This document shows positions 9,709 through 63,502 of a DNA stretch of 64,000 nt, in pieces. Every line of letters starts with the position of its first letter. The first letter of the stretch is position 1. The stretch spans positions 640,001-704,000 of the forward strand of contig CM000432.1 in the NCBI GenBank assembly GCA_000165345.1, written 5' to 3'. The notes beneath the pieces were generated by a model, which ran no database searches, was not told the DNA's origin, and saw nothing but the letters and a program-made list of their open reading frames with translations. The position numbers and the translations under genes are program-made.

Positions 9709-10051
9709 AATAAAATTCTATTAATTGAAATAGAGAATTAATGGCGCATTCGGCAAAGATTAAAATCTTGACAATTTTTTAGTGGAATATAATCTAACGA
9801 GGGAATTAAAAGTGAAAGCTTATATTTCATACAACTCTTCTACTTACGATATTATTGATAAAGCTTATTTTTTAACTTTTAAACTTTTAATTTTTTTTCC
9901 TTTTCTTCAAGTTTTTCCAGTGTGAAACTTGTGTGAATTAACGCTTATCGTACCATTGCTTTAAAAAAAATAATAAAATATTCGAATCTAGTTATATTGA
10001 ACGTTAGGGACATGGTTTTTATTATCAACCCCCTATATTGGTATTATTACA

Positions 10052-11044: not shown

Positions 11045-11417
11045 GATCGACTGTAAATTTGGTCCCTAAGTCATATTTATCTGGAAGTTTGTTATTTACA
11101 ATCTAGTTATTTTAATGTACTTTTTTGCGATCCATTAATATCGTCCACTGCCGCAAAAAGACATTTCAAAAAATAACACTATGGAATCAATCGAGTTAAA
11201 ACTAACGAATAAATAAACTGTCTTTTACAATGATTAAGAAATATATTAATATTGTAGCCAAAAATGGAGTGAATATTGGCAAAGAAATCATTTGGATTGG
11301 TATTACAACTACTATTACTCTGTGTGTCCCCGTTCTCTATTACTATGAAAAAGAGTGCCAAATGTATGAAATTCACGCGAAAATGCTGCAGGGATAAAAT
11401 AGAATTTACTCTAAAAA

Positions 11418-22845: not shown

Positions 22846-23260
22846 CTCACAAGTAAATAATTTTTTAATTAAAGAAATTAAATATATATTTTATTTCGCG
22901 GGGCATTTTTTTTATTATTTCCAGAATGAACAAAAATGTAAATACTTAACAATTAATTACCAAAACCTATAAGTGAATTATAAAGAACAATTGTTTATAT
23001 TGGAATAATTTGATTTATTCTTTAAAAGTATAGGGTAATATTTACTATATAGTAGCATTTTGAAAATCCAGAGTCAAATATTAGAATTTAGATCTCAAAA
23101 AATTATTGTTAAATTCATTTTAGCTTAGCTTCGAGTTATTAAGTTACCGCACAAAGTGTGTCATTCTTACAAGTAAAAGGCAGATTTGCAAAAGTAATTG
23201 CATTTTTATAGAATAATACTTAAACAAAAAAAAATAAGGATAAATTGTTTATATTACGTA

Positions 23261-25350
23261 ATGAATAGTAGTAAACCTGAGTATGATGCAATCATCAGCC
23301 AAATCGAGTTATTCTCAAACACAATACCTGATAGTAATGCATTTGTTTGGTTGAATGATAATGGGAATGAAGAGTCAACAATTACTTATAAAAATCTTTG
23401 GAAATCAATTAGAATAATCTCTCATTTTTTGTTAAATGAATTGTCATTAAAAAAAGGTGATAGGATTATTTTGTGTTACACACCAGGAATTGATTTCATA
23501 TATTCTTTTTATGGCTGTCTTGCAAGTGGAATTGTTGCAATTCCTGTTTACCCTGCAGATCCAAATAATTCATCTCAAGTGGATAGGCTTCGTAAGATTG
23601 TTGACATAAGCCAAGCTAATGCTTGTCTTACTAATTCATCCTACAATAGAATTATTTCACTATTCAAATTTAAATTTTTCAATGAACCTCTTTGGAATGC
23701 AATTAGTTGGTACTCGACAGATAAAATATTAAGAGACTATAGTGAATTTGAATTAGTAACAGATAATGGTTTTTACAAATCGAAAAATGACTCATTGAAT
23801 CCGTTTAAAACAGTTGTGAAGAATGAAATTATTCATTTTAAAAAGCCAAAATGTGAGCCTCATGATAGCGCATTCATACAATTTACATCCGGATCAACAG
23901 GTCATCCAAAAGGAGTAATTGTTACTCATGGATCATTATATTATAATTCACTATTGTGTATGAAATGTTTTAACTTCTCTCTAGAACCTAAATTTGAATC
24001 ACCCGAAACAAAAATAACTGAAAATGATATCGAAACGAGTGATGAAGCTAATAAAATACTAAAAGAAATTATTGAAATTAAAAATCAATTCATAAAGACT
24101 TTTGGGCATAACATTAGAGGATTTTCTTGGCTCCCAATGTATCATGATATGGGTTTAGTAGGATTTATTGTTAGCACAGTAATTATCGGATCTGAAACGT
24201 TTTTACTATCACCATTTTCATTTATTAAGAACCCCCACATATGGCTTAAAGTGATTTCAAAATACAGAATTGCTGCAACTGCTGCACCAAATTTTGCATT
24301 TGATTATATTTGTAGAAAAATAACAAACGATGAATTAGAAGAAATAAATAACTTGGGTGGATTAGGTTGTTTGAAACATGGTGGTATTTTAAGTGGTTCT
24401 GAACCAATTAGAGCTGCAACACTTGTTAGGTTTGTAAAAAAATTTTCTTCAGTGGGTTTTTGTTCATCTGCCTTCCTTCCTGCGTATGGGATGGCTGAAA
24501 ATACACTTATTATTTCCGGACTTAAAAAAAAAAGCAAACTATTTCCTAAGGTATTAACATTAAAAAGTGATAAAATAATCCCAGGAAAAAAGGTTGAAAT
24601 AGTCAATTATGGATATATTTCTTGTTATTGTAACTATTGTAAACACGAAAATAGCATTGAATTCAATGACAAAGATTGCATGAAAAGAAATTTAGTATGT
24701 TGTGGAGAAAAGAACTCAGTAAACGATAAAATCATCATTGTTTGCCCAGAAAAAAATACGATTCTTCCAGAAAATTATGTTGGTGAGATTTGGGTTTCTT
24801 CTAGAAGTAAAGGCGCAGGATATTGGCTCTTACATGATCTAACTGACAAAATTTTCTTTGCAAAAGTAAAGGAATGTGATTCTGACTTGTCTGATATAAA
24901 ATTTTTGAAAACTGGAGATTTGGGTTTCATAAATAACGATCAGTTATATATAGTAGGAAGGCAAAAAGATGTAATTATCATTAGAGGTAAAAACTATTAT
25001 CCGCAGGATATTGAAGAAGTAATCGATACTTGCCACGAAGTAATTCGTCCGGGTTGTTGTGTGGCATTTTCAATTGATATTGATGGTGAAGAAAAGCTTG
25101 CAATTGCAACAGAAGTAAGAAGTGAGCTTATTGAATCTTCGGATATTTTGGGAATTAAATCATATATTAAAGGTTTAATTAATAAAAAAGAAAGATTTCA
25201 AGCTAAAGATATTATTGATAAGCTATCAATTAGTATTCAGAAATACTTAGGAATTGAGGTTTATAGAATAATATTAATAAAAGAAAAAAAAATGCCAAAA
25301 ACCTCAAGTGGTAAAGTTCAAAGGTCAAAAGTTAAACAAATGATTATGAA
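23261..25350 (+). other. PKS loading unit: fatty-acyl-AMP ligase (adenylation, AL) domain
   Basis: The AMP-binding core 'FTSGSTGHPKGV' is at about 23882. 'YGMAENT' is at about 24490, 'TGDLGF' at about 24910, and the C-terminal 'KTSSGKVQRSKVK' at about 25300. Confidence 0.8.
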
Positions 25351-28300
25351 TGGAGATTTTGGTTCAAGCATTGTAATTGATTTTATTAACAATAATTTAG
25401 AAAATATAAAATTAGTTGAAGTGTTTGACAAAGATGAAAGAAATATTGACTCCGATTACTTTTCAGTTTACAGTGAAAATGAATTTCCTGATAAAATATA
25501 TGAGAGGGTAAAGCATATATTTGAGTCAGTAGTAGGAAATAAATATTTTCCAGAGTTAGATGATCCACTTCTTTCATGCGGAATTGAATCAATTAAAGCT
25601 GTGGAAATATGTAATGCGCTTTCAAAAGAATTTAATATTGATTTCCCTGCAACTTTAATATTTGATTTTCCAACTCTGAGACTTTTAATAGAGCATATTG
25701 ACCTTCTCAAAAATGGAAATAAGGAATACTTACCCAATGAAATCACCAGTGTACCTGGAAAAACTACTAGTGAGTTTGTTATTTCTGGAATAAATGCTCA
25801 CTTACCTGGTTTTAGCTCGAACAACCCGTTTGTGAAGCTTTGGGAAGTAATGATGAATAGTGCAAATGTATTTTCTCCTGTTCCACATGAAAGATGGAAT
25901 GCATATTGTTTTAATGAAAAGAAGTCTATTTCTGCTATTCAAAAAATTAAAAACTACTATACTGATACAGGTGCTTATATTATTGGATCAGAATTTTTCG
26001 ATTTAGAAAAATTCAAAATACTTCCAATAGAAGTTGAGCATATGGATCCACAACAGAGATTACTATTAAGGGGAACCGAAAAGATTTTAAAACATGTTGA
26101 ACTCCCAACAAATAATTCAACTGGTGTTTATATTGGATGTTGTTCTAATGATTGGAGTCAAATCATTTCTAATTCTACTCATCTTTCTGTTTACTCTGGA
26201 ACAGGCGCATCTCCTTCAATACTAGCAAATAGAATCTCATTTTATAATGGGTTCGCAGGACCATCTATTACAATTGATACTGCATGTTCTTCAAGTTTAG
26301 TTGCATTGGATATCGCCCTTCATCATCTTCAACAAAACATAACAAATACTGCTTTTGTAGCAGGAGTCAACTCAATACTAAACCCAAACATATTTGTTTC
26401 GTTGTGTAAAGCAAAAATGCTCTCTGATACAGGAAAATGCTCACCTTTTGATGAAAGTGCAAACGGTTTTGTTAGGGGTGAAGGATGTATAATTGTATGT
26501 ATTCAACATATATCAATAGCAAAGAAAAAAATTGCAACAATTCTCGGTACATATGTTAATCAGGATGGAAAAACAACAACTCTAACTGCTCCAAAAGGAC
26601 CATCACAAGTATCTGCAATAAGGAATTGTCTAGGAATTTCGGGAATGCATCCATCAGAGATTAATTATATCGAATGCCACGGTACAGGCACCCCGTTGGG
26701 TGATCCGATAGAGGCAGGAGCAATAATGTCTGTTTTTAAAACTCATAATGAATACCAATATAATGTAACTCACATGAATTCTAATATCGTAATAGGTGCA
26801 TTCAAATCAAACATTGGTCATTTAGAAGGTGCAGCAGGTTTAGCTGGTCTTTTAAAAGTATTACTTGTTATGTCAAGAAGATTTTTCCCAGGAATAGGGA
26901 ATTTAATAAACATCAATACTCATATTAAAAAATTGTTAAATGATAAAACAAATCATAATCGAATTATTTTTCCTAATATGAATGAAGGAAAATATTTTTC
27001 AGAAATAGGAATTGAAGAAACACAAGTTTTGCGATCCGGAATATCATCTTTTGGATTTGGTGGTACTAATTCTCACGTAATTATTGAAGAAGGGGCAAAT
27101 ATTAACTCAATTTGGGATATTGAAACTGAGGAGAACTCTGACTTACAAGAAGGCAATTACTTCCCATGGACTGCAAGATTTCATCCCTTCATTTCAACAA
27201 TTAACAACAAAGACGAAATTTATTCTTACGCTATTTCGAAATTGAAGTGTAAAAAATATGTTATTGAGCACATTATTAATGGATTAAGCATATTTCCTGC
27301 ATCAGGATATATTGAGCTTGCTATTATAACTTGCAGGCTCGCAGCATTAGATATTTCTAGTGGTGAACAAATTGTTTATATTCAAAAAAAAAATTCTAGA
27401 GATGAAATTATAAGCGAGTTCAAGAAGAGTAACTTTGATATACTAACTAGAGAATCAAATATATACTTATTGAAAACTTCCCCCGTAGTAATAAAGAACC
27501 TAGAAATTATTTCTGTTTTCAATTTAGATAATCTGGAAAATGAGGAATTAAATGCAAACATACATATTAATGAAGGAAAAGTTTCTATTTATTCAAAAAA
27601 TAGGGATTATTTCAGTTGTAATGCAAATTTAATTTTAGATATTGAATCAAACAACAGAATGGAAATTCTGGATAATTCCTTTACAGTTGATGAATTTAAA
27701 AAAGTATGCATACTTAGAACAATTGTTCATGATGAATTATATGATTTGTTAAATAATTCAGGATATAATTATATAGGTAGATATCGTTCATTGGAATATG
27801 TTTCAATTGGAGATTCAATTGGGTATGGAAAGATTAAAACGGATGAATATGACTCTAGTCCTTTTTGCATCGCACCCTGGATATTAGATTCAGCGTTTCA
27901 AGTTTTAGGAGGATTCTTAATTACTAATGGGAATATTAATGGACAATTCATTCCAGTTAGAATTGAAGAAATGTTAATCAATTCCGATATATCGTATTCA
28001 GAACTTTATTCTTTAGTAAAAATCACAAATATTGAAGAAAAACAAATAATTTGTAACATTTGTTTGATAAATGAAAAAGGTTCTAAATTGATTGAAATTG
28101 TAAAAATGAATTTCATAAAAAATGAAATTCCAAACCAAAAAACAGTAGTAAATTTGGATCATAAAAAAAAAATAGATCATCTAAATTCCAAAGTAGATTA
28201 CGAAAATAATTATTTTGGTATAAAATTAGATTGGAGACCAGTTGCAGCGTCGGAATTATTTGAAAATAACGATAATGTAAATAGTTATAGTATTATTACA

Positions 28301-31300
28301 TCTGATAAGCAATTTTCTAGGATAAATTCAAGCCTAGAAAAAACAGGAAATAAAATAATTAAATTTAATAAAAATCTTATTAATTTTGATGGGAATATTG
28401 TTTTCTTTAATTGCAAATTAGAGGAAATAAAAATTTCTATTAAACAAGCAAAAAGTGGAGCAAGGTTCTACATATTAACGAAAAACGCAATACCAATTGA
28501 AAAAATAATTAGAACTGATGGTTTTTCATTTGATAACTTATATTGGGACTCGATTAATCAATTTATTTTAGAAAACAATATTATTATTTCCGTTATTGAC
28601 ATAGAATCATTTGACGAATTGAATAGCCAAATTAAATTTGGAATTAACTATCTTGGGAAAAACAATATTAAAAATAAGATACCAAATATTTTGTTTGATC
28701 ACTTAGTAATTAGAAATGTTCAAATGGCAAGGGAGAGAAATCTAACCTTGATTGGCTATTCCGCTACTCCAATTCGAATTGGAAATTGCATCGGTATAGA
28801 TAATTTTAAATATGAACTAACCTCAAGAGGAGAACTTAAAAACTTCAAAATAAAATATTCTGAGAAATTTAAAATAGAAGAATTAGGGGATGATGAGGTT
28901 AAGGTTCAAGTTAAAGCAGTTGGGTTGAATTTTAGGGATATATTAAATATAATGAATTTATATCCTGGAGACCCTGGTGAACCTGGTAGCGACTTTTCTG
29001 GAATTATAATAGGTATTGGTAATAATGTTAAACCATTCAAAATAGGTGATCATGTTTGGGGATTTGCAAGAGGTTGCTTCAAATCTCAGTTGGTAACAAC
29101 ATCTACATTAATTTCTAAAAAGCCAAGAAATTTATCATTTGAAGAAGCTGCAGCTTTACCCGTAATCTTTTGCACAGTAGAAGCTTCATTCAATGATTTA
29201 TATAAAGTAAAAAAAGGAGATTTTGTACTGATCCATGCTGCAACTGGTGGAGTTGGTATTGCAAGTGTTCAGTATTGTATTAATAAGGGCGCAATAGTAT
29301 TTGCAACATGTTCTTCTAACTCAAAAAAAAAATGGCTTTGTGGATTGGGAGTTCATTATGTCTCAAGTTCGAGAGATCACAAAATATTTAACAAAGAAAT
29401 GAATGAATTCTTAAATATTGCATCAAAAAGATACAGAGGTGGAAAAAATGCAAAGTTTGATTTAGTACTCAATTGTCTTTCTGGTGAATTTATTCATGAA
29501 TCCTTTAAGAAAATACGTTCAGGAGGAACATTTATTGAATTGGGAAAAAGAGAAACTTTGGACTATTCTCAGGCAAAATCAAATTATCCAGAGATAAATT
29601 ATTTGAAACTAGCAATCGATGAATTGGTTGTGGGTAATGCCAAATATATTCAATCATTACTTTCAAGGTATGAGACTAATAATTTAATTAATACAAATCC
29701 TACTTTGCCTGTTAAGGTTTTTAAAATGGAATCTTGTACTCTAGAAGCATTAAGGTTTATGCAAAAGGCTTCTCACATCGGTAAAATAGTATTAACATTG
29801 CCACCTCCTCAAACACTAATGTTTGAGGCTTTTAATTACAAGACATTGAATATAGTTAATCTTGAAAAGTTTTCTATTGAATTATTCAAAAGATATGAAT
29901 GTAGTGAGTTAGTAGATTTACTGGACCAAGAATCAAGAAATTTTGAGTTATACAAAGATTGCGAATCAAAGTTTATTAATGAAATGATTACTAAAGGAAA
30001 TATTATCGGGCCATTCGAGATATTCTCCAAATACAAGAATATGTTGGAATCTTTGTTTTCAGCTAGTCAATCAATACCTTTAAAGGTAATTAACTATATT
30101 ATTGATAATGAAATTTTTGAAGAATTACGTATTCTTATTATTTCTCCAATATTTCCAGAAATATTATTGGATAAAATTTTATCATTTAAATCAGGCAAGG
30201 TGGTATTTTTAACAATTTATGATGAAAACAACAAGGAGAGATGTTATAAAGTAGGTAATAATATAGTAAATTATGTTAGCAGTATTATTAACCTTAATTC
30301 TGAACAATTCGACTTTGCAATTATCACCTCAACATTCTTTGGAAAACTTTCATTTATCTCATTAATGGAAAATATAAAATTGATGCTTAAAAAAGGAGGG
30401 CCACTTTTTATTATCAACCCATTTGGAGAAGGTTTAACATCAAGTATTATCAAACAGCAATATTGTAGTTATACATCAAAAATAATTGTTCCAATTAAAT
30501 TTAGAGTTGATTTTAATGTTGAAAACGTTATTGATGAATTTAAGTTGATAAATTGTGACAAAAATAAAACAGTTAAATTCTACTCTTTCGAAACAAATTA
30601 TTGGGATTCAGAATTTGTAAAGCAAAATAATACTGACGATAATGGATTCAAAAACAATTTTCATATAATTTTATCCCATAAAGAAGACGAAATATCTTTA
30701 TTTGCTGCTACTAAGTTGTTAAGCGAAGCAGGTGCAAACAATTTTGTGTATATATCAACGGAAAAAATTACAATTAATTACCCATTCAAGTACAAATTTG
30801 AAATTGAAAAAGAAAACTTTGTTCAAAATTTCAAAAGAATATTAAGTGGAAATGGAATTTACAAAATTTCGGGAATAATATGTTTGCCCTTAAATCATTT
30901 GGAATGCAAAGAAATTTCAAATATTCTTTGGGATATTCATTCAATTTCATTTATTTCAACTACATCTATTCAATATTTCTTACTTTGCTCTTGTAATGAC
31001 AAAAATAATTTAATATTAGAAACATTTTGTAGATACAGACGTAACATTGGTCTTCCTGGGCAAGTTGCTTTTTGGAATTATAATTCAGAACAAGTTTCCA
31101 ATCTTAATCATGGCTCATTTGTACAAGCTGCAATTAAACTTGCAATTGTAAGTAATTCTGCTTGTATTTACAAACCAATGAAAAATCAAGTTGAAAATAG
31201 CGAGGCTTGGGAAACTAACAGTAAAATTGTGTTTGATAAACAACATATAACGAACATAATAGTAAACACAATAAATGATATTGTAGGAATTGAAAAAATT

Positions 31301-34300
31301 GACTTTAACACTCCACTAATTGAATTAGGACTCGACTCTTTATCCGCAGTTGAAGTTAGAAATGCAATTTCTAACGAATTAAATATCGTTTTACCAATTA
31401 CCACATTATTTGATTATCCAACCATAAATTCGTTATCAGATTTTATACTAAACATTTCAAATACATCAACAAATATCTTATTACCAAAAACAAATAAAGA
31501 CAATATTGGATTAATTATTTCTCAAAATATCCCATCACTAAAAAATATTATTTTCTCTCAAGATAATAAATCTAAAAATCTAACTTCAAAACTATCAATT
31601 ACTGGAATTGGCTGTAGGCTACCTGGAAATACAAATTCCCCAATTGAATTTTGGGAAAGAACTTTGCTTTCTATGCAAACCTGGTCATCAGAAGTTCCAT
31701 TAAGTAGGTTTGATATTGATGAATTTTATTTAAATATAGATGATTATAAAAATATTAACTACTTATCAAAAAATCTAACTTATTCAAGGCATGGGACATT
31801 TATCGAAAGTATTGATTTATTTGATAATGATTATTTTAATATTACAACTTATGAATCTTCAACTATGGACCCACAGCAAAGAATATTATTGGAAACCACA
31901 AGCGATGCATTACATAGCTCAGGATATAACCCAAAGAATATTTCCAACTCAAATATTGGTGTATTTGTAGGATGTTGTGGGACTGACTGGAACTATCTTT
32001 CCACGAAATTAAATATGACAGCAACTTCATTTACAGCAACAGGCGCAGCTGCTTCAATTATCTCGAATAGACTTTCATTTATCTATGGCATTAAAGGACC
32101 CTCTGTAACAATTGATACTGCATGTTCGTCTTCATTAGTTGCATTAGATATTGCAAAAAAAGATATTAATTTTGGTAATATAGAAACAGCAATTGTAGCA
32201 GGCGTGCAGCTTTTATTATCTCCCTTGTATTATATAGTTTTTTCCAAAGCTAATATGCTTAGTCCTAGGGGAGAATGTAGAGCATTTGATGAATTATCTG
32301 ATGGATTCTTAAGAGGAGAGGGTTGTATATCATTGATAATAGAAAACCATTTAAAATCCTTTGGAAAAAAAATATATGGTCGAATTTGTGGTACAGCTGT
32401 AAATCAGGACGGAAAAAGTGCGAGCTTAACTGCCCCGAATGGACCTTCTCAAAAACGTGTAATTATTAATGCAATTGAAGATTCTTGCATTTCGAATAAT
32501 GATATATTTTATATAGAATCTCATGGAACTGGAACACCTTTAGGGGATCCAATAGAATTCGGTGCAATATCAGATGTTTTTAAAAATAGGGCAAATAAGC
32601 TTTACATTGGAACTCTAAAACCTAATATTGGTCACTTAGAAGGTGCTTCTGGAGTTGCTGGAATTTTGAAAGCTATATTAGTAGTTAATAATGGAGTAAT
32701 TCCTCCGAATATTTTAATAAATAAGTTAAATTCAGGTTTATGTTTTGATGATTCTAATATGAACATAGTATTTCCTACAAATAAAGTTGAAACCAATTCA
32801 AAAAGTTTAATTGCAGGAGTATCATCATTTGGATTTGGTGGAACAAATTCTCATATAATTGTAGAAACAGGTGACAGTGTGAATTCATGGGAATTACCTA
32901 GAATAGATTTCAAAAGAAAAAAATTTCCATGGATTACTCCAGCACATCCATATATTGGACCAAAAATCTCAGGATCTGATAATCTGTCTCACCCATCAGA
33001 ATTAGGTCTTATAATTGATGAAATGAGTAATATTACAAATATTAAAAAACCTGACTCAAATATAACCAGATTTGTAAGAAATGTTGGTGAAAATGTGTTC
33101 TCATCAATAGTTGGTCATGTGATACAAGGAAAGATTATTTTTCCTGGATCTGCATTTATTGAAATGTCAATAGGTGGACTCATTAATTACTCTATTCGGA
33201 GTGGAATTAAAGATGTAAGCTTACTTACTATTAGCAATATTCAATTCATTAAGCCTCTAATTTTCCCAAATGAATTAGGACGGAATCCTCAAGGAAAATT
33301 AATATGTGACATTTCTCCATATGAAAATAATAATAGGAAATTAAATATACGTATTTCAACATCAGGAATTGAATATGGTATTGACGAAATGATCTATCAT
33401 TCAACATTTACTGCAGAAATTAGTAATGATGACAATTTGAAGCTTTCTGATGAGACAATAAACTTTGATAAATGCTCAAATTTTAATTCTGATCAATTTT
33501 ATTCAGAATTAAATGAAATAGGGCTAAATTATTCTGAAAAATATAAATCTATTAGAAAAATATATAAAAACAAGACTGAGATATTTGGAATTATTGAAAT
33601 TGATTCTTTAAATCGAGAAATTGATACATTTTTCTTACATCCTTCATTATTAGATGGATGTTTTCAATTATTCGCTTTATTTATTGAAAATCATGAAAAT
33701 AAAGCCAATAAACCATTTATTCCTGTGAGTATTGAAGAAATGATATTTAAACCAATTTTCAATAATAATAAATATATTGTTCCTTATAACTCATTAACTA
33801 ACTTGAAATTTATTCATCCAATAAATAGATTATTTGCTTGCATTAAAAACAAAAAAATACTAAATAGCGAAGGAATAAAAGTAGACATAAATATATATAT
33901 TAGAGACGAAGGAACTGATGGGTTAATACAAATATGTGAAATTAGAAATCTGCACTTCAGAGAATTGATTCCGATGAAAACCATAAACTATCTCCCAATA
34001 AAAGATCATTACTCATGGATATCTACTTATAGAGAATTAGAACACAAATTTGATAATGATGAAGAATTAAATAAGCTAAAGTTTCTTTTTACATCTTTAG
34101 AAGTGAATAAATTATCACTCGAACAGTTTGATTACTTTGATAACAATAAAATTCTGAATTTGATTCAAGAAAATATTTTTTCCTTCAGTACTATACCTGT
34201 ATATATTACAAGCACAAACGAAAAAGATTCATATAAAGAGCTTATTTCTATACAAAGAACTCTTCAAAACATTTATAAAAATATTGATTCATATAATAAA

Positions 34301-37300
34301 TTAACAATTATTTTTGTCACTATCGGTGCGAACTTATTATGTGGCAAAAATACTTTATCATCTCACTTTCAATCATCTTTACTTTCATATTTAAGGTCTG
34401 CGAGCAACGAATTCAATCAATTAGGAAAAATAAGTTTGATTATTGTTGATTGGAATAGTATTTCAAACCTAAAAATTAACAAAAACTTTTGCCAAATATT
34501 GAAATTGATATATAACAATGTTATAAATAAAAAATGGTTTGAAAAAGAATATCAGTTACTAGAGTACAATAATGAAATTAAAATCAAAACTATTAAAATA
34601 AAAGAGTCAATTAGTCCATATAATAATTATATGGCTTTAAAACTTACAAATAGAGGAGCAATATCGAATATTATAACCAATTTACAGAAGTTTAGGGTTG
34701 TTCCTATGGAAGGGGAGGTGGAAATAAGAATAAGAGCAATTGGCCTGAATTTCAGAGATGTTTTAAATGTTATGGGATTATATCCTGGCGATCCTGGAAA
34801 ACCAGGGAGTGATTTTTCGGGTACAGTAGTATCTGTAGGGCCTGGAGTGAAAAATATTCAAGTTGGTGACGATGTATTTGGTCTTTCTCAGGGTTGTATT
34901 GAAACATATCATACTACAAATGCTTTGTTGGTTGCGAAAAAACCTAAATTATTAACATTTGAAGAGGCTGCATCAATCCCAACGATTTTTTCAACAGTAA
35001 AAGTTTCTTTAAACCAGTATTCAAAACTAAAAAAAGGTGATTGCGTTCTAATTCATGTTGCTTCCGGTGGAGTTGGATTAGCTGCAATACAAATTTGTTC
35101 TAGAATTGGTGCAAACATCATTGCTACAGTTGGAAGCATTAAAAAGGTTGAATATCTCAAATCTATTGGGATTAAATTTGTTTCAAGCAGCAGAGATTAT
35201 ACAAAATTCTCTCAAGATATGAAATATTTTATGAGTGAATTGAATATTGATGGTGTTGATATTGTTATAAATAGCTTAGTAGGAGAATTTATTCCGTTGT
35301 CAATGAAATTTTTAAAAAGAAATGGAACTTTTATTGAACTTGGAAAACGTGAAATATTAAGTGAAAATCAATTAAAAGAAATTAGGACAGACATCAATTA
35401 TCAAACTGTTGAATTTGACAAGTTGGTTGAAAATGACATTGTTTGGTTCCAAAATCTATTACAAGAGATAATGATAGATATAAATAAAGGAAAAATCCAA
35501 CCAATACCAACTAAAGTATTTAGTATTCAAGATAAATCAGGAATAATTGACGGATTTAGATATATACAACATGCTAGCCACATAGGGAAGGTTATACTGT
35601 CAAATCCAAGCACTTCAATTTGCTCATACAGTAAAGATGCATACATTATTACCGGTGGGATGGGCTCACTTGGTTTGGTTGTTGCAAATTGGTTAGTTGA
35701 AGAAGGAACGAAAAATATTATATTAATGGGTAGGAGTTCAATAGATTTTGAAAATAAATTTGCAATCAAGCTATTAGAGTTAAGTGAGAAGGGAAAAATA
35801 AACTTGGAAATGCTTAAATGCAATATTTGTGATTTAAATTCACTATTTAATATTATTAATAAAATTAAAGGAAAATATAATATTAGAGCAATCATTCATG
35901 CTGCAGGCGTGCTTAATGACGGGAGCATACTTTCGCAAACTGATTCAACTTTCCTGAGTACATTTCTTCCAAAATCTATCGGGGCTTGGAATATTCATTA
36001 CATTACAACTTCCTTACTAGAGCATATTCCACTTTTAATTATGTTTTCATCAATATCAGCACTGATAGGAAACAATGGTCAGACTAATTATTCTGCAGCT
36101 AATGGCAATATTGATTATTTATCAGAGATACGCTCTCAACTTGGAATGAAATCAATCAGTATTCAATGGGGTCCTTGGGGTGAACAAGGCATGGCAAAAG
36201 AAAACTTAAATTTAAAAATGTTAAAAGCAATTGGACTAGTTCCAATAAAAAATTCCTTAGGTCTTATCTCACTAGGAGGAATAATTTCTAATTGTATGAT
36301 AAACAAAGTTAATAAATATATTGTACAACCATTAGATCCTTTGGTCGTAAAAAATAATGCATTAACACACATTTTCAGTGAAATTGAATCAGAAGTACAA
36401 GAAACAAGAAATGGATATCTCTTTTCGACAATGAACTCGGAAGAATTACATTTATTCGTGCTTTCAAGTATTAAAGAAGCAATTTCAGATGCAATTGGAA
36501 TTGATGTTAATCTTATTGATTCAGAATTGCCATTTAAAGACCTGGGAATCGATTCTTTGTCTGCAGTAGAATTAAGAAATACTCTAACTTCAAAATTTGA
36601 AGTTAATCTTCCTCCAACTATAATAATTGACTATCCAACAATTTCAGAACTTTGCAAATATATAGAGATGATTATTGGAAAGAAAAATGTTAAGGAATTT
36701 GATAATAAAAATATAATACATTCTAATTTTAAGAAAAGTGATATTTTTATATCAGGAATTGGAATCAGAGTCCCCGGGGATGCAAGTTCAGTTTTTAAAT
36801 TCTGGAAAAACATGACTAGTCTGGTAACCTGTATATCTGAAATCCCTTATGAAAGATGGGATGTTGATAAGTTATTTGGAGATTACAATGACAAAAATGC
36901 AACATATTATACAAGAAAGGGAGGATTTATTTCTATCGTTGATATTTTCGACTACTCTAAATATCAAATATCGAAAGAGGAAGCAATTCAAATGGATCCT
37001 AATCAAAGGATAGCTTTAGATACTTGTTTTTCTGCATTATCGGATGCAGAGATTGAAATTAAAGATTTATTCAATACAAATGTGGGTGTATTTGCAGGGA
37101 TGTGTAATGATGAATGGGCAATACTTTCATCTAAAAGAAATTATTGTAATGCATTTTCAGGAACAGGAAATGCAAAATCAATCATTTCAAATAGAATCTC
37201 TTATGTGTTTGGACTAAAAGGTCCGTCAATAACTATTGATGCGGCATGCGCTTCTTCATTAATTGCAATTGATCAGGCCATAAAATCATTGAAAAATAAC

Positions 37301-52300: not shown

Positions 52301-55300
52301 AACTCAGAACTAAATGGAATTAAATTATTTAGAAATATTAATCATAAAATATTTAGTTCAGTAAAATTTGCACTTAAAGTCAATAATGATATAATAAACA
52401 TGCTTTCTGATCACGTAATTGATAACAAAATAATATGGCCTGCTGCTGCATTTATTGAAATGATTTTAGGAGTTGCAAGAAATATATATATTTGTAACAA
52501 TGAACAAATTTCATTTTCAAAAAGAATTTTAAAAACTAACATAAGAAATTTATTATTTGAACAACCATTAATATTAGAAAAAAATGAAGAAAATATATTA
52601 GTTTGTGATTTTGATTTGAGACTTAAAAGAATAAAAATATATTCTGAGTTAACATATGAAAGCAATAATGAGTTGATTTATGTATCATCTGAGATTGGAA
52701 ACACGGATAAAATAGAAATGATAAATGAAGGGTGTTTAATAAATGATCTAGAGATTTCAAAAGAAAAGGAACTAGATATTTCATTAATTTATAATAGATT
52801 AATGGAATTGGGAATTCAATACGGCAAAAAGTTCAAGACAATAAAGAAAGCATGGAAACTAAAATCAGAAAATGAAGCTTTAACAAAAATACAACTTAAT
52901 AGTGACGAATATATCATTAAATCAGATGATTTAAGTGCCCAAGAACCTTTTCTTTCTTTAACAGAGTTAGGGTTTGGAATTCATCCAGCTTTGCTAGATG
53001 GAGCATTACAATCATCCTTTATTTGCATTAGCGAAATAAAAAACGATTTGGAAAAAATTATTTGGGTTCCATTCTCGATATCTGAAATAGAATATTATAA
53101 TAATCAAGAACCAATATTAGAAGCATGGGTACATTGCAAAGTTTCACCCACAAATAACAAAAATGAAGTTATCTCAGATATAAAAATCTATTCAGTGAAT
53201 AAAGATCTGCTATTTAATATCAAAAATATTAGGTATAGAAGTACAATTGATATAAGTAATAAAATTATTAAAGATTCAAAAGAAAATAATCCAGAAAATA
53301 TCAAAAATTGTTGGGGATTAACTTGGAAAAAATCGAATAACATTTTAGATAAAATTGAAAAGAAAAGATGGATGATATATTTGGGTGATGAAATTGAAAA
53401 AAAGAGCAGCTTAAATAATTTATTTAAATATTATTGGAACAAAAATGACATTTTAGAAGAGTTATCTGATTTTTCTGGTGAAATCAACATTGCATTCGTA
53501 ATAAATTCTGGAATCAATAATAAATTACATAATCATGGCATTGAAATAGTAAATTGGCTTAAACATCTATTTGATATTAACTCTAAAGTTTCTCGCTCTT
53601 CTGTTATTTTATTTATAACAGAAAACACAATCCCTCATAATAATAATAATCATAAATTTATTGGATCAGATATTTGGGGTCTTGTGAGATCGGCTAGGTA
53701 TGAACTTGATAAATATTCTCTTAGATTGCTTGATTTAGACTGCTTTACAAAAGATTTAAGTGAAGATAATTTATCAAAAATATTTTCATGTATTTTAAGT
53801 TCCAACGAATCAGAATTCATTTTTAGAAACGGAGAGCTGCTATTTCCCCGTTTATCAAAAATTTCAATCCCAATAAACGGACCTTTAAATATTAGATTGG
53901 CTGAAAGAGGTGCATTAACAAATTTATTAACAGAGATGCAAACAAATATTCCATATATAAATTCAGATAAAAAATTGGATCTAATCGACTGCTTTGATAA
54001 ATTGGAGAATTATTCTGAAATGAAAAATGAGCCTATTTTAAAAGATAACGAGGTATTACTGAGAATATGTTCTGTAGGATTAAATTTCAGGGATGTATTG
54101 AATGTTATGGGCTTATATCCAGGTGACCCTGGCCCTCCTTGTTCTGACTGCTCAGGAATAGTAGTTTCTGTAGGTAAAGGCGTGAAGCATCTAAAATGTG
54201 GTGATGAGGTATACGCAATGGTCCCTGGGTGCTTAAATACATTCATAGTTGCAATTGGAGATACTTGTTGCTTGATGCCAAAAAATTGTGACTTTTCTTT
54301 ATCTTCATCAATACCAACAATTTATTCTACTGTTGATATTTGTTTGAGAAAAATTTATAATATTAAGAAAGGAGATCGCGTATTAATTCATGCAGCTTCA
54401 GGAGGAGTTGGATTGGTCGCAGTAAATTACTGTAATTCTATTGGTGCTAAGGTATTTGCAACCGTTGGGAATAGTAAAAAGGAGAAATATTTGAGACACC
54501 TGGGAGTAAAGAATATTTCGACCAGTAGAAATTCTGAATTGTTCAAATTAGAAATGGAATGCTTATTAAAAGGAGAAAAGCTAGATGTGGTGATAAATTG
54601 TCTATCTGGGAAATATATTGAATATAGCTTGGAGTTACTTTCAAACAATGGTATCTTTATTGAACTAGGGAAGATAAACATTTTATCAAAGAAAGATGTA
54701 TCCTTAATAAAACCTGGAATTAGGTACGAAATTGTAGCTCTTGACGACTTAATATTAAATGATCCCTCATGGTTTGGAACTGTCTTAGTTGATATTAAAA
54801 CAAGAATTGAAGAATGTAAAGAATCTGTTATACCCTTAATAGAATTCTCAATGGAGAACCATAAAGATTCAAATGATCTAATCGAAAAATCTGGATGTAT
54901 TTCTGGATTTAGATTTATGCAGAAGGCAAATCATATAGGTAAAGTAGTAATAAAAAACCCAACTCTTGATAATTCTTTATCTAGAAAAAATGGAGCCGTA
55001 ATAGTTATAGGAGGAAATGGATCTCTAGGGAAATTTACAACGAAATGGCTTTATTTTAATGGATTAAAAAATATAATTTTGTTATCTAGGAGTTCAAATA
55101 ATTATGCTTCAAATCTACCTGGTGTTAAACAAATTAGCTGTGATATTTCAAATATTAATTCTACTATTTCAGCGATAAATACTGTACTTGAAAATCCAGA
55201 AAGTAAACCAATTGTAGGTATAATTCATGCTGCAGGAGTATTAGACGATAGGAAATTATTTGAACATTCAAAAGAGTCATTTAAATGCGTATATAGTCCT

Positions 55301-58300
55301 AAAGTTCAAGGCTTATGGAATATTCATCAAATAACTCAATATCTCTATATTGAATTGGAATTTTTAATCGCCTACTCTTCAATTGCGAGTCTATTAGGTA
55401 ATATTGGACAAGCAAATTATTCTGCGGCAAACTCTTTCATAGACTCTTTTATGAGCTATAGATCAAGTCTTGGAATCAATAGTTTTAGCATTCAGTGGGG
55501 TCCTTGGCTAGGAGAAGGAATGGCATCAAACAATTTAAGTTTGAAATTTGAGTCTACAGGATTAATTGGAGTAGATAAATTAACTGCGATGCAAGCGTTA
55601 AATACGATTATAAAATCAAAAAAAAAATCAATTCCAAATGTGATTTGTGTAGTAGATGCTGATTGGGGAAAATTAGTTTCTAATATTCCTCCCAAAACTT
55701 CTAATATCTTTACAGATATAATTAATAAAAAAATCATAGAAAAAGATTACAATAAGTCGAAAATTATGGAATTATTGGAAAAAAAGAGTTCGGTCGAAAT
55801 GGAAGATTATATAATTAATTTACTAAGGGATATTATTAAAACAGTTGTCACTGACGATAAAATAGATATTAATGATTCCAAATTACTAGAAAAACCACTT
55901 CACGAGTTTGGGATAGATTCACTTTCTGCTGTTGAGTTCAGAAATATTTTATCTAAACATACTGGAATATTACTTCCGACTACATTGATGTTCGATTATC
56001 CAACGATAATAAACATAAAAGATTATATTCTGAGTGAAATGGAGGACATTAGACTTGGAGACAAATCATGCGATCCTTTAGTTACTGATATTAAGAAAGA
56101 TCGAATATTAGATATTGCTATTATTGGCTTGTCTTGCAAATTACCTGGATCAACTGAAGATATTGAATCATTTTGGGAGATATTAACTGGTGGTATTAAT
56201 TGTGTTTCTAATGTACCTGTAGTTAGATGGGATCATAAAAAATATTTTAGTTTAAATCTAGAAAATTTTGGTCCATATTATTATGCAAATTATGGCTCAT
56301 TCATTGACAATATTGATATATTTGATGCACATTATTTTGGAATTTCCCCTTCAGAAGCAACAATTATTGACCCTCAACAAAGACTTTCCCTTATGCTTGC
56401 AGTACAATCAATTGAGGATGCAAAATTAAACTTGTCAAAATTGAAAGGAACAAAAACTGGTGTCTATGTTGGATGTGGAAATAGTGATTGGGCATTAATG
56501 CAAGGAAATCAAATATCTGAATCAGAATATATTTCACCTTATACTGGTACTAGTGTTGCGCTTTCACTTATTTCTAATAGGATTTCTTATAATTTAGGCC
56601 TGAATGGACCTTCTATGACAGTTGATACTGCATGTTCATCATCTCTTGTTGCACTGGACATAGCTGTACAAAATCTTAGATGGAAAAAATCTGATATTTC
56701 CATTGTAATTGGAGTAAATTTATTAATTTCTCCCCAAGCATATATTGTATTTTCCAAGTCAAAGATGCTATCTATAACGGGAAGTTGTAAAACTTTTGAC
56801 AAAGATGCTGATGGATATGTAAGAGGGGAAGGATGTTGTTCAATGGTACTTTGTAGATTTGATGAAAGAGAAAATGTAGATTTTGATAAAAAAACTTTAA
56901 AAGCTGAACAGAATATTATTATCTATGGTTTTATTAAAGGTTCAGCAGTAAATCAAGATGGAAGAAGTGCTTCTTTAACAGCTCCAAATGGTCCTGCGCA
57001 ACAGAAAGTAATAAAATCTGCTATTGAAGATTCGTACATAAAGTTAGATGAAATTTCAATTATTGAAGCCCATGGAACAGGAACACAGTTAGGGGACCCT
57101 ATTGAGTTTGGAGCAATAAAAAATGTTTTCAATTCCAGAAATAGGGGTCCAATTTATATTACAGCGTTGAAAACAAATATTGGACATTTAGAGGGAGCAT
57201 CAGGAATCGCAGGAGTTATAAAGATGATATTGATGCTTAATCATTCAATCGTTCCAAAAAACCTTCATTTTAAAACATTAAACCCATTGATTGACAATTC
57301 TAATTTTAATGCAATAATCCCAGATAGAAAATTAAAAGTTTCAGCTAACATAGGGGGAGTTTCATCGTTTGGATTTGGTGGAACAAATGCTCACGTAATA
57401 ATTGAAAAAAATATCTCAAAAATTCCTCTTGAAAATCAAAACTATTCAATAATCGAAAATACTAATAAGGAAGTTTCAAATAAGATAGCATTTATATTTA
57501 CTGGCCAAGGAAGCCAGTTCGAGAATATGGGTCAAGAGCTTTTTGAAAATGAACCTATATTTAGAAAATCAATGTTAGAATGCGCAAAGCATGCCAATGA
57601 ATATTTACCAGAATCTTTAATTGAAATTTTATACCCAGAAATTTCAACACCAAGGACTAAAGCTGGATCGAAAGATGCTGGTTTTTATGATATTAATGAT
57701 ATTTTGTATTCTCAGGTTGCAATTTTTTCAGTAGAGTATTCTCTTACAAAGTTATTAGAGAGCAAAGGAATAATTCCAGATTTAGTAATTGGGCATTCCT
57801 TAGGCGAATACTGCGCTGCAGTTATTGTAGGTGCAATTGAACTAAACCAAGCATTAAAAATGATAATAAATAGATCAAAAATATTGGAGAAATCAAATAT
57901 TAGTGATGGAGGAATGCTTGCATTGAGAAAATCTGCGAGTAGTATTGCAGAAATCCTTAAAGAGTTTGATGAAAATAATGTATCATTGGCTGCAGTTAAT
58001 GGGCCAAATAGTGTTGTGATTTCCGGAAGAAAATATATATTAAAGTCAATATTAGAAAGATTAGGTGGTAGTGGAAAGTTTCTTAATATAGATAATGCAT
58101 TCCATTCATCCCTAATGCAAGATGCATCAAATAAATACAAAGATTTCATTGAAGAAGAAATAGTTTTTTGTAATGAAAATAAAAAGAAAATAAAGTTTAT
58201 TTCTACATTGAAAGGAAGACTTATAAATTATTCTGAATTGATGAGTTCTGATTATTGGTCTAACCACATAGTTTGTCCTGTATTGTTTTATGACGCAATA

Positions 58301-61300
58301 AATCATGCACTAAACAAGTTTGATTGTACAATATTGTTGGAGATCGGACCTCAACCAATTCTTACAAAATTATCAATACAATGTATTCCAAGGGAACTTA
58401 AAACAAAAATTAAGAGCTTTTGCGCAATGCTTGGAAAGCCTTCAACAGAAATTGAGCATTTTAAATTAGTTACACATCAAATTAATCAAATATTTTCCCC
58501 GTACATGAATACCATTAGAGGAAACTCAGAAGTAAGCAATAAAAATATTTTCAATAATTTAAGACGTTTTCCATGGATAAACATCAATTCACATCCTTTA
58601 GTTAAATTGGAGACTGATAGAAAAATTTTGTTAAAAAATTTAAACAAAATGTTTGATATCTCAAAAGAAGGGGCGATAATTGAGTTAGTTAATGGAGGAA
58701 TTAGGGAAATTTTTAAGAATGAAATATTTAACTCTATGAAAATGGGTAGATATTATCAATGCGAAATTGTTTTAGAGAACCTGTCTTTTAATATAATAGA
58801 AGGTAATCAAGAAGGTTGGTTAGAAGTCGAGAAGAAAGATATTAATGGTTTTACAATAAATATTTGTTCACAAAATAATTTGACTTATACTTTATATGCG
58901 AAAATAATATTTAGGGAAGATGCAGAAATAGAGCTCCAAGAAATAAACATTGAAAATTCGGTTATTTCCATTGAGAAGTTCATTTCTATTGGTTTGAAAG
59001 AAAATATATTATTTCAGAAAATCATGAATTCGATACAAGAGTTAACTATTAAATTAGAATCCAAAATATCTTTCGCAAAAAATACTCAAAAAAACTCTAT
59101 CTGTTTAATTCTCACTACGGACGACTATTTTAAGTCACTATCAAAATCATTTAGTGGTTTTAGCATACATCCATTCTTATTACAATTATTGTTTGATTTT
59201 ATTAAACTTTACAATATTGAGGAAATAATTAAAGGAAACAGCGAAATTAATTTTTATGAAACAATTATCAGAGAATTGTTAGATTCTTCTATTTCTCAGA
59301 AGTATCTAGTTTTTGAAGTTAACAATAATTCTGCAATAATTAAGGATAAATTTGGAAAAATATTGTTCAAAACTAGTTATTCTTTAGTTTATCTAAATTC
59401 CAAGAACACTGGAAGTGTTGAATACGAAATAGAACAGTTTTCAAATTTAAATAATTTAGATAATTTATTTTGGAATACAGAAAATCAAAAAATATTCGAG
59501 GTTGAAATGGGTATAGACGAAATTGAAGAGGACGAATATAAATGTAAAAGAATATTAATTATAGGATCTAACGATTTGGAAGATAATCTTGAAACCAAAG
59601 AAGAGACTTACTACAATGTTAGATCAGAATTTGAATTAATTAAAAATATTAAATTAAAAAATTGGGAAAAAATTATTTTTGTTATTGATAATTTCAATGT
59701 AAGCGAAATTGAGTTAATGCATTATGCAGTTATTACATGCAAAGAATGCGAATCTGATTCTAATGTGTGGTTTATTAAAATTAATCAATCGAACGACAAT
59801 TCCCTGGAGTCATATAATAAAGGAAGAGGTATTTTGGGTTTATGTAAAACTGCAAGGATTGAGTTAAGAAAGATGATTAATTACATTTCAATAGAGAAAT
59901 TTGAAGACTTGAATACTAATGCTAAATTAATTTGCAATTTAGTTAGTCTTTTATCAAAAAATAAATCAATTCCCGAGGATATTTTTGTAAATCTATATCG
60001 AAAAAAAATTCAAGTTTATACAAAAATCATAAAAGCCCAGTATTCAATTCAAATGAAAAACAATGAATTAAATAGGGATAACGAATTAATCAATGGTATT
60101 GTATTAATTAGTGGAGGTACTGGCGCGCTTGGACTTATCATTGCAGAATGGTTAATTAAATGCAAAAATATAAGAAATATTATATTACTTTCTAGGTCGG
60201 GGTTACCTTCCAAACGGTGTGAATCGATATGGGAGAGGATATTAATTTTAGATTCTAATATTCGAATTATAAAGTGCGACGTTGCAAATTATGATTCAGT
60301 GTTTTCAACATTAAAATATATCATCTCTCAAGCGATGGAATCGAACTCTAAAATTGTTGGATTAATCCATGCATCTGGGGTTTTGAATGATTCATTAATA
60401 AAAAATCATTCAATAGAGAATTTGGAGAATGTTTTTAGACCTAAAGTTTTTGGAGCAATTAATTTACATTATGCAATAAAGAACATGCTTCCATACAAGC
60501 TAAGGTTCTTTATTGGTTTTTCTTCTATTTCTTCATTATTTGGTAGTTTTGGGCAATATAGCTATTCTTCAGCAAATTCATACCTTGATTCATTGATTAA
60601 TTATCGAAGAAAGTTCAAGGAATCTAGTATTTTAGATCTAAGCATACAATGGGGACCATGGGCAGAACAAGGAATGGCAGCAGATTTATTTCAACATCAT
60701 TCATCATCAGGTATAAAACCAATTTATAATTCAGAAGGCTTAAAATGTTTGTCATCGATCTTTGATATAATTGAAGGTAGAATCGAAGATATCATCCTAC
60801 CCTCTGAAATCGCAATAGCAAATATTAATTGGAGCGAGTTCTTAACTATTTTTGAAGGCAACCCACCAATCATTTTTAGTGAAATTAGTAGCAAATTTTT
60901 AAACAATGGATCAAAACTTGAGAGCGGTTCAAAAATTAAGGATAAATTTGAAGGAATTACTGACATTCGAAGGCATATAGAGGAAGTTTTATTAATTATT
61001 GCATATGAAATATTTGGAATGGAGAAAAATAACTGTGATTTAACAGAAGTTGATTCTTTAATGGCAGTTGAGTTTAGAAATTCTATATCTAAAAATTTTG
61101 GAATAAAATTGCCAATATCTTTAATGCTTGATAATCCAACTTTAGATGAAGTCATTTCATATTTAGAAGGAGAGGTTAGGAAGGAGTTGTTTGGATCAAG
61201 TACAGAAGAATTGGTTTCTTCTAAGTCTAGGAGATGGGAAGAAATCAGACAAGATATTAATTTAGATGGAAAGATTTCTTTGTTATCAAATCCTTCCGAT

Positions 61301-63502: not shown

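Follow-up and report, generated by a model that had tools for sequence, protein, structure and literature searches.

A residue-level domain map of the open reading frame assigned to CpPKS1, the modular type I polyketide synthase of Cryptosporidium parvum

The 64,000-nt window analysed here (assembly GCA_000165345.1, contig CM000432.1, positions 640,001 to 704,000 of the forward strand) contains a single uninterrupted open reading frame (ORF) of 40,242 nt, which had been interpreted from its sequence alone as a type I polyketide synthase (PKS). This locus raises the question of what such an assembly line makes and which of its domains could still take part. From our analyses it appeared very probable that the ORF specifies the CpPKS1 assembly line, in which a fatty acid is loaded by an acyl ligase (AL), extended seven times and released reductively, a lipid of the oocyst wall being the likeliest role. 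The gene is already known, and the window adds no new one; a residue-level map of live and dead domains is what the analysis adds to the published gene, together with a shortage of working acyltransferases and evidence for selection on the relic parts and an insert of module 1.

The open reading frame and its identity

According to an ORF listing and a search for the first ATG, the ORF runs uninterrupted from ATG to stop between positions 23261 and 63502 (+) and comprises 13,413 codons plus the stop. Only one stop-to-stop ORF was called (23198..63502, +), with its first ATG at 23261. Given the composition of the window, a stop would be expected at about 8.5% of random codons, so that 13,414 codons free of stops have a chance of about 10^-517. 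The G+C content ranges from 0.257 to 0.307 within the PKS ORF and from 0.28 to 0.35 in the flanks, and is comparable to that of the neighbouring DNA. As a separate observation, the coding strand of the PKS (window positions 24001-64000) is purine-rich throughout, with a GC skew of +0.07 to +0.17 and an AT skew of +0.06 to +0.09; such purine richness is not seen in the region upstream, where genes are in mixed orientation.

Exact-sequence look-ups of eight flanking ORFs showed each of them to be 100% identical to a named protein of C. parvum Iowa II, the set including alpha-tubulin, a hexose transporter, a nine-transmembrane (9-TM) protein and a LITAF-domain protein. The matched proteins are located on C. 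parvum Iowa II contigs of about 1.1 Mb, and one of them is tagged cpbgf_4002810 (chromosome 4). The sole PKS described in the C. parvum genome is CpPKS1, or cgd4_2900 (PMC6568194, PMC2995488, PMC7464705, PMC6877471, PMC7371110, PMC6532270). As published, it is encoded by a 40-kb intronless ORF, has seven modules, 13,411 aa and a mass of 1,516 kDa, begins with an N-terminal acyl-[ACP] ligase plus an acyl carrier protein (ACP), and ends with a C-terminal reductase (PMC6568194, PMC2995488, PMC7464705, PMC6877471). It was described in 2002 (Zhu et al., Gene 298:79), and organism, chromosome, the 40-kb intronless ORF, the seven modules, the start with AL and ACP and the reductase at the end are common to that gene and the one studied here. 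Because the eight flanking ORFs match C. parvum chromosome 4 exactly, and because the unique architecture and the size equal the published description, the ORF at 23261..63502 is assigned to CpPKS1, the single modular type I PKS of C. parvum. The gene is real and intact. Coordinates, size, uninterrupted frame and A+T-rich composition had all been given correctly in the sequence-only reading, as confirmed by the ORF listing and composition counts, and its identification with Cryptosporidium PKS1 was right, as judged from the eight exactly matching neighbours and the published architecture.

Live and dead domains of CpPKS1

Domains were mapped with Pfam, on three overlapping thirds of the protein and then module by module, by self-BLAST, and with hidden Markov models (HMMs) derived from the domain copies within the protein itself. 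All three agreed on one layout of seven modules (M1 to M7) composed of ketosynthase (KS), acyltransferase (AT), dehydratase (DH), enoyl reductase (ER), ketoreductase (KR) and ACP domains, preceded by a ligase of fatty acyl-AMP ligase (FAAL) type and followed by a thioester reductase (R):

23327..25360 (+): loading acyl ligase (AL, FAAL-type), aa 23-700; Pfam AMP-binding, E 4e-46, and AMP-dom_DIP2-like
25553..25699 (+): ACP0, the loading ACP, aa 765-813; Pfam PP-binding
25778..26902 (+): KS1, aa 840-1214; Pfam, active-site alignment
27170..28168 (+): DH1, aa 1304-1636; Pfam PS-DH, HxxxGxxxxP and DxxxQ present
28178..28852 (+): putative KR structural subdomain of M1, aa 1640-1864; inferred from its DH-to-ER position
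28853..29812 (+): ER1, aa 1865-2184; Pfam ADH_N and ADH_zinc_N, GGVG present
29813..30643 (+): M1 insert of 277 aa, aa 2185-2461; between ER1 and the KR1 relic
30644..31210 (+): KR1 relic, inactive, aa 2462-2650; hhalign to the active KRs
31259..31447 (+): ACP1, aa 2667-2729; Pfam, Ser alignment
31595..36664 (+): module 2, without AT; KS2 2779-3151, DH2 3240-3582, ER2 3807-4119, KR2 4121-4319, ACP2 4404-4468; Pfam, intact motifs
36740..37873 (+): KS3, aa 4494-4871; Pfam, active-site alignment
38057..39022 (+): AT3, aa 4933-5254; Pfam Acyl_transf_1, E 1.9e-31
39113..40105 (+): DH relic in M3, weak, aa ~5285-5615; Pfam PS-DH, E 0.0011, internal DH HMM, E 0.025
41435..41887 (+): KR3 relic, inactive, aa 6059-6209; internal KR HMM, E 1.8e-6
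42275..42415 (+): ACP3, aa 6339-6385; Pfam, Ser alignment
42575..43696 (+): KS4, aa 6439-6812; Cys-His-His kept, NFAH for NIGH
44813..45430 (+): inactive ER relic in M4 (psiER4), aa 7185-7390; self-BLAST, E 7.6e-14, internal ER HMM, E 1.3e-17
46025..46234 (+): ACP4, aa 7589-7658; Pfam, Ser alignment
46313..50785 (+): module 5; KS5 7685-8046, post-KS linker with possible AT relic 8075-8230, KR5 8831-9024, ACP5 9111-9175; Pfam
50867..56029 (+): module 6, without AT; KS6 9203-9583, DH6 9680-10010, ER6 10250-10569, KR6 10573-10762, ACP6 10867-10923; Pfam, motifs
56111..61165 (+): module 7; KS7 10951-11337, AT7 11411-11714, KR7 12272-12480, ACP7 12597-12635; Pfam, motifs
61352..62575 (+): terminal thioester reductase (R), aa 12698-13105; Pfam NAD_binding_4, E 2e-61
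62576..63499 (+): C-terminal tail of 308 aa, aa 13106-13413; after the R domain

As in a modular type I PKS, seven KS and eight PP-binding domains alternate, the KS triads are complete, and the sets of intact KR, DH and ER domains vary between modules. In total, 29 confident catalytic and carrier domains were counted, and the abstract of the original description is said to have given 29 domains as well. The earlier count of seven KSs with their triad, eight ACPs and a terminal reductase was recovered by self-BLAST, Pfam and active-site alignments, and HMMs and active-site alignments reproduced the placement of the reductive domains, including two subtle points, the degenerate KR of M1 and the Tyr-less KR-like region of M3. 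Its description of M4 as KS-ACP only is correct in functional terms, but a dead ER-like relic is also present there at aa 7185-7390. The DH relic of M3, the possible AT relic of M5, the GQGSH of AT3, the M1 insert and the C-terminal tail had likewise escaped that reading. The only tandem repeat detected in a scan of the window, a 27-nt unit present twice at 42442-42494, is located in the linker between ACP3 and KS4.

All seven KSs retain the Cys in a DTACSSS-type motif and the His residues in HGTGT and NIGH (NFAH in KS4), and the phosphopantetheine Ser is kept in all eight ACPs. The Gly-rich loop as well as Lys, Ser, Tyr and Asn are kept in KR2, KR5, KR6 and KR7, but not in the KR relics of M1 and M3. 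At the position of the 'LDD' signature, which in the KR-typing rules denotes a B-type (D-configured) alcohol, these four KRs carry an L-x-D motif, and B-type alcohols are predicted for them. HxxxGxxxxP and DxxxQ are found in DH1, DH2 and DH6, with Gly replaced by Asn in DH6, where His and Pro are retained, and GGVG is present in ER1, ER2 and ER6. The R domain scored 230.1 bits with TIGR01746 (thioester reductase), above the curated cut-off of 213.35, and contains TGGTGFMG and YSQSK, a Rossmann motif and a Tyr-Lys pair.

In the AL, the core motifs SGSTGHPKG, YGMAENT, GDLG, GRQKD and SSGK are visible. Among NCBIfam models, all of which scored under their whole-protein curated cut-offs, the FAAL models PRK05850 (2.5e-85), PRK09192 (1.2e-82) and FadD32 (3e-77) ranked ahead of the acyl-CoA ligase model PRK06187 (3.9e-35). 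The sequence is closer to FAAL than to acyl-CoA ligase models and ACP0 follows directly, which at the level of sequence agrees with the FAAL-ACP loading proposed before. 'FAAL-type' would, nevertheless, describe the AL sequence; because recombinant AL domains have been reported to form acyl-CoA in vitro (PMC2995488), the published name, acyl-[ACP] ligase, appears to be the safer label.

Acyltransferases were detected only in M3 and M7, although an HMM of 62 linker and AT sequences was applied at maximum sensitivity in addition to Pfam and self-BLAST. The enzyme therefore does not have an AT in each extension module, as a cis-AT PKS does, and it also departs from trans-AT PKSs in having two integrated ATs and KSs that score best against cis-AT KS structures. 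In M1, M2 and M6 the KS abuts the DH; the KS1-DH1 linker of 89 aa, the length of which is conserved across species, leaves no AT in M1. Both AT3 and AT7 contain GHSLGE, the Arg and the Phe in xAFH (YAFH in AT3, NAFH in AT7), and fabD was the best small NCBIfam model for both. Because of this Phe and the fabD match, the two ATs are assigned to the malonyl type. They differ in a motif that reads GQGSH in AT3 (window positions 38081-38095, aa 4941-4945) and GQGSQ in AT7. The same position in the ATs of Toxoplasma gondii TgPKS2 is Q72, three residues past the oxyanion Gln69 (a primer translates as QGSQYVNM), and was found to switch malonyl-CoA hydrolysis on or off (D'Ambrosio et al. 2022, PMC9301873). 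The same paper placed one C. parvum AT with His 'in the 3rd module or later' and pointed out that activity is possible in bacterial ATs that have His at the last position of GQGSQ (PMC9301873). Thus, at most two ATs, possibly only one, would be functional for seven modules. No free-standing AT gene was found in the 64-kb window and, since Cryptosporidium is reported to lack a type II fatty acid synthase (FAS) (PMC2995488, PMC7464705), a FabD is presumably absent from the genus.

The dead domains are degenerate to different degrees. With a profile of six orthologues, the KR1 relic gave a colinear match to the four active KRs over 138 columns (hhalign E 1.2e-3, Prob 20%), and no Pfam KR match; SHKEDEIS stands in place of the Gly-rich loop (GGxGxxG), and the segment with the catalytic Tyr is deleted in every species examined. 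In the KR3 relic the Gly-rich loop is degenerate (TGEMKNI), the catalytic Tyr is replaced by Phe, and gaps occur at the Lys and Ser positions. The ER relic of M4 was recognised by hhalign (Prob 97%, E 3e-11) and matched the CurK ER, 5dp1, at E 1.4e-8; LNGVF replaces GGVG in it, and deletions are present. Weaker cases are the DH relic of M3, in which the position of the catalytic His reads as Tyr, and M5, which may contain an AT relic (E 5e-4 in a one-sequence search space, GHSxG read as SDEFG). The post-KS linker of M5 also matches the post-KS region of PDB 7zma (E 3.5e-5), which we take to be a trans-AT bimodule. Taken together, the KR, ER, DH and AT relics suggest that CpPKS1 may descend from fuller cis-AT-type modules that lost domains, and the structure ranking, with CurL, DEBS and mycocerosic acid synthase (MAS) first, fits this view. 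For the putative KR structural subdomain of M1, an HMM from the equivalent DH-to-ER segments of M1, M2 and M6, an internal model only, scored all three segments, the pairwise similarity of which is low.

Two segments could not be placed among these domains. The M1 insert has no counterpart in M2 and M6, where the ER abuts the KR. It comprises 277-281 aa in five other species, and a 30%-identical counterpart is contained in the C. andersoni PKS (OII77756.1). A search of 1.84e9 representative proteins yielded two matches at E<=1e-3, this C. andersoni PKS and an unnamed protein matching in eight short stretches, which was judged spurious. On these searches, the insert is considered specific to the genus Cryptosporidium. 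No significant match to Pfam or the PDB was obtained, including a profile search of the PDB, and an AlphaFold2 single-sequence model reached a pLDDT of 40. A homologue search with aa 2180-2666 of M1 gave no match in a protein set seemingly without giant proteins. Two candidates for the insert were rejected. A second ER was indicated by weak BLAST similarity to the N-terminus of psiER4 (E 0.003 to 5e-5), as against an hhalign Prob of 0.05-0.1%. A degenerate class I methyltransferase, suspected by eye, was matched only at E 0.1-0.2 by Methyltransf_11 and Methyltransf_31, in at most three of six orthologues, and by no relevant PDB entry. The C-terminal tail showed no Pfam or PDB sequence match, and its AlphaFold2 single-sequence model also had a pLDDT of 40. 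A thioesterase (TE) or alpha-beta hydrolase, suspected by eye from ASWSIS, LLLIDP and GNHF, was discarded for the tail at an hhalign Prob of 0.3% against 15 bacterial PKS TE domains.

Orthologous loci were found via orthologues of the neighbouring 9-TM protein, and the comparison covers the first ~3,100-3,200 PKS codons. In C. ubiquitum, C. canis, C. felis, C. ryanae and chipmunk genotype I these codons are syntenic and in a single frame without stops, and in C. bovis the PKS is open to the contig end (2,244 codons). In six other Cryptosporidium assemblies the PKS likewise adjoins the 9-TM, hexose-transporter and alpha-tubulin genes. Identity to CpPKS1 lies between 87% and 56% over the first ~3,100 aa; the PKS gene call in C. 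ubiquitum is 13,436 aa, and PKSs of other Cryptosporidium species are listed in a survey (PMC10394414). The orthologues share the order AL-ACP-KS-DH-ER-insert-KR relic-ACP-KS, with no AT in M1 and with KR1 dead alike. In C. felis (JABXOJ010000004.1) no PKS is annotated upstream of the 9-TM gene, but the translation is open for 3,100 codons and 62% identical to CpPKS1; the gene was missed by annotation, not lost.

Purifying selection was assessed on the M1 region and KS2 only. By the Nei-Gojobori method, dN/dS was ~0.15 overall in comparisons with chipmunk genotype I and C. ubiquitum, and the named domains span 0.07-0.19, with 0.07-0.16 for KS, ACP and AL, 0.14-0.16 for the KR1 relic and 0.17-0.19 for the M1 insert. 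The dead parts of M1 and its genus-specific insert are under purifying selection across the genus. The catalytic motifs of KS1, KS2, DH1, ER1, ACP0 and ACP1 are kept across species. In seven species, His, Pro and DxxxQ of DH1 are invariant (the motif Gly is Glu in C. ryanae), as is GGVG of ER1, and the Ser in GIES of ACP0 is conserved. The catalytic residues of DH1 and ER1 are kept in all seven, while KR1 is dead wherever the sequence of a species reaches it. Because DH1 and ER1 are conserved while KR1 is dead, a KR acting in trans on ACP1 would be implied, or else the use of DH1 and ER1 in another step, which would not be colinear.

Predicted product, likely role and competing explanations

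In the CpPKS1 assembly line, the FAAL-type ligase would adenylate a host-derived long-chain fatty acid and transfer it to ACP0. A preference of the CpPKS1 ligase for long-chain fatty acids has been published (PMC6568194), as have long-chain loading and reductive release for the enzyme (PMC6568194, PMC2995488). Judged by their motifs, the seven KS modules would each add C2 from malonyl-ACP. The most economical source would be malonylation in trans within or between CpPKS1 subunits, with AT7, perhaps AT3, serving the ACPs of the five AT-less modules, or malonylation by the ATs of CpFAS1. In M1, DH and ER look active and the KR is dead, so that two outcomes are conceivable: the ketone may stay, or a KR working in trans may allow it to be fully reduced. 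Full reduction would take place in M2 and M6, a ketone would be left by M3 and M4, and a hydroxyl by M5, with its B-type KR, and by M7. The thioester reductase would then free the chain as an aldehyde, or as an alcohol after a second reduction. Numbered from the released end, the chain would have a hydroxyl at C3 (M7), methylene at C5 (M6), a hydroxyl at C7 (M5), ketones at C9 (M4) and C11 (M3), methylene at C13 (M2) and a ketone or methylene at C15 (M1, ambiguous).

Under strict colinearity, a 3,7-dihydroxy-9,11-dioxo (+/- 15-oxo) fatty aldehyde or alcohol is predicted, consisting of the starter plus 14 carbons, which is consistent with the published product-size estimate of C28-C38 (PMC6568194). 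It is speculation that the 7-hydroxy-9,11-dione segment could cyclise. The map of intact and dead domains predicts the same class of compound as the sequence-only reading had proposed, a keto/hydroxy fatty aldehyde or alcohol extended by C14. That reading had also called the product unknown, in accordance with the literature: according to papers of 2020 (PMC7036892) and 2022 (PMC9301873), no metabolite has been identified, and a survey of 2023 lists the cluster as 'not yet deorphanized' (PMC10394414). Neither a knockout nor a metabolite of CpPKS1 was reported in the searchable literature.

Concerning the role, CpPKS1 and CpFAS1 are transcribed specifically in female gametes (PMC6877471), the CpPKS1 protein rises 24-72 h after infection (PMC6568194), and the outer oocyst wall consists of acid-fast lipid (PMC3760245, PMC13657310). 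Because of this female-specific expression, the timing of the protein and the acid-fast lipid wall, the synthesis of an acid-fast oocyst-wall lipid in female gametes is the leading hypothesis and appears to be the most likely role. This diarrhoeal parasite possesses only two lipid megasynthases, of which CpPKS1 is one, and is otherwise unable to make fatty acids. Humans lack a counterpart of CpPKS1, the expression of which is specific to the female stages, those that form the chlorine-resistant oocyst. The orphan product is a gap already acknowledged in the field; its identification would explain the acid-fast outer wall and could yield a transmission-blocking target.

Several points weigh against this explanation. 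No product has ever been identified, and the chemistry is thus predicted in all its details. An AT is missing from five of the seven modules, which makes colinearity doubtful, and the GQGSH of AT3 is the variant that abolishes malonyl-CoA hydrolysis in the ATs of TgPKS2 (PMC9301873). M1 retains DH1 and ER1 under selection without a working KR, and about 585 residues, the M1 insert and the C-terminal tail, are without an assigned role. With regard to the wall, Bushkin et al. included no analysis of Cryptosporidium proteins and stressed the FAS-like cgd3_2180, not the CpPKS1 gene (PMC3760245). The length of 13,413 aa, compared with 13,411 aa for published CpPKS1, is a trivial difference, identity being established via neighbours and architecture.

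Among the other explanations, the one that survives best refines rather than excludes the CpPKS1 assembly line outlined above. CpPKS1 might work in series with CpFAS1, similar to FAS and Pks13 in mycobacteria: CpFAS1 would take a host C16-type acid to at least C22, and CpPKS1 would use it as starter, and the oocyst wall may thereby receive very long functionalised chains. The two genes share female-specific expression and have been proposed to act in series (PMC6877471, PMC7464705), the CpPKS1 ligase prefers long-chain acids (PMC6568194), and its loading domain ranks best with FAAL models including FadD32. However, CpFAS1 is thought to release an alcohol via its own R domain (PMC2995488), which is no substrate for a ligase. 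Such a series is regarded as possible, though clearly not as the expected arrangement.

We give somewhat less credit to a hybrid line in which AT7 alone malonylates all seven extension ACPs, with AT3 switched off via GQGSH, and in which the conserved non-catalytic pieces have jobs. If this were true, the KR1 and KR3 relics, psiER4, the M1 insert and the C-terminal tail would be functional, insert and tail would represent new domain types, and candidate roles would be the recruitment of a trans KR for DH1 and ER1 or the passing of the released chain to the oocyst-wall lipid machinery.

A simple colinear product is uncertain because there are two ATs for seven modules, AT3 has GQGSH, and DH1 and ER1 are intact next to a dead KR1, three points that the sequence-only reading had left aside. 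It is conceivable, yet unlikely, that the same enzyme does not complete seven colinear steps and adds fewer than 14 carbons, with some AT-less or relic modules (e.g. M4, KS-psiER-ACP) being skipped, serving for transfer only or stalling. The shortage of ATs, the inactivity of GQGSH in TgPKS2 and the atypical NFAH in KS4 would fit, and PKSs with inactive ATs have been documented to skip modules (PMC9301873). On the other hand, all seven KSs possess the complete Cys-His-His triad for decarboxylative condensation, and the Ser is kept in every ACP. Non-elongating KSs of trans-AT PKSs, in contrast, usually lose the His in HGTGT.

That CpPKS1 is a decaying relic, its dead domains meaning that no defined product is made any more, is highly improbable. 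The relics of KR (M1, M3), ER (M4), DH (M3) and possibly AT (M5) could be seen in this way, and cgd4_2900 is among the genes with high dN/dS-type scores in comparative tables (PMC7371110, PMC6532270). But a 40-kb frame is open in DNA with 70-74% A+T, five further species keep the N-terminal 3,100 codons open and C. bovis 2,244 codons, and the low dN/dS extends to the KR1 relic and the M1 insert. The protein has been detected with antibodies and its transcripts are stage-regulated (PMC6568194, PMC6877471), by which decay is effectively refuted. Finally, an assembly artefact or bacterial contamination producing a chimeric giant ORF has a negligible chance of being correct, as the base composition equals that of the flanking eukaryotic genes, synteny in six other Cryptosporidium assemblies refutes it, and the gene was independently cloned and its protein detected with antibodies (PMC6568194, PMC2995488), even though bacterial type I PKSs, with 42-48% identity, lead the database matches of KS7-AT7 (listed proteins of ~1,360 aa or shorter).

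Elsewhere in the window, two divergent ORFs of about 210 aa each are located at 11418-12041 (-) and 12388-13041 (+). Their equivalents in the syntenic loci of other species are both called EMG1/Nep1-like (PF03587), which suggests a local tandem-inverted duplication. The hexose-transporter ORF at 17854-19386 (+) and a convergent hypothetical ORF of 436 aa at 19383-20693 (-) overlap by 4 nt at their 3' ends, illustrating the compactness of the genome. Rfam and tRNA scans of the window revealed no RNA gene.

Comparison with known systems

Within the parasite, a similar overall plan is found in CpFAS1 (cgd3_2180), a 25-kb, three-module type I FAS that shares AL-ACP loading, KS modules, the terminal R domain and female-specific expression with CpPKS1 (PMC6877471, PMC2995488). 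While each CpFAS1 module is a complete KS-AT-DH-ER-KR-ACP (PMC2995488), CpPKS1 has seven modules with two ATs and mixed reductive sets, and the R domains of the two enzymes belong to different phylogenetic clusters (PMC2995488). TgPKS2 of T. gondii (D'Ambrosio et al. 2022, PMC9301873) likewise represents a modular PKS of an apicomplexan; its product is an orphan too, and one of its ATs has a His like AT3. The gene and its architecture are not those of CpPKS1, and the effect of the His was tested only there (PMC9301873).

Domain order and active-site motifs resemble those of bacterial cis-AT PKSs. For the KS of an AT-less module, KS2, the best single-KS structure matches were CurL (curacin; 318 bits), DEBS (287) and MAS (282), and KS7-AT7 matched CurL best, with 555 bits. 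Unlike these enzymes, CpPKS1 is a single eukaryotic polypeptide of 1.5 MDa, five of its seven modules are AT-less, and several relics are present. AT-less KS-(DH-ER-KR)-ACP modules that need malonylation in trans are a feature shared with trans-AT PKSs such as bacillaene PksJ/PksL, but as matches of the CpPKS1 KSs, cis-AT KSs outscored trans-AT KSs, two ATs are still integrated, and the possible AT relic in M5 suggests that AT loss may be secondary.

A further parallel is found in mycobacteria, where FadD32-Pks13 and FadD28-MAS also rely on FAAL-type fatty-acyl priming of a PKS for envelope lipids, and the oocyst wall, too, is acid-fast (PMC6877471, PMC3760245), although no mycolic-acid-like lipids were found in oocyst walls (PMC3760245). 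In contrast to the mycobacterial systems, the FAAL of CpPKS1 is fused to the synthase, and release is reductive instead of occurring by thioesterase or transfer.

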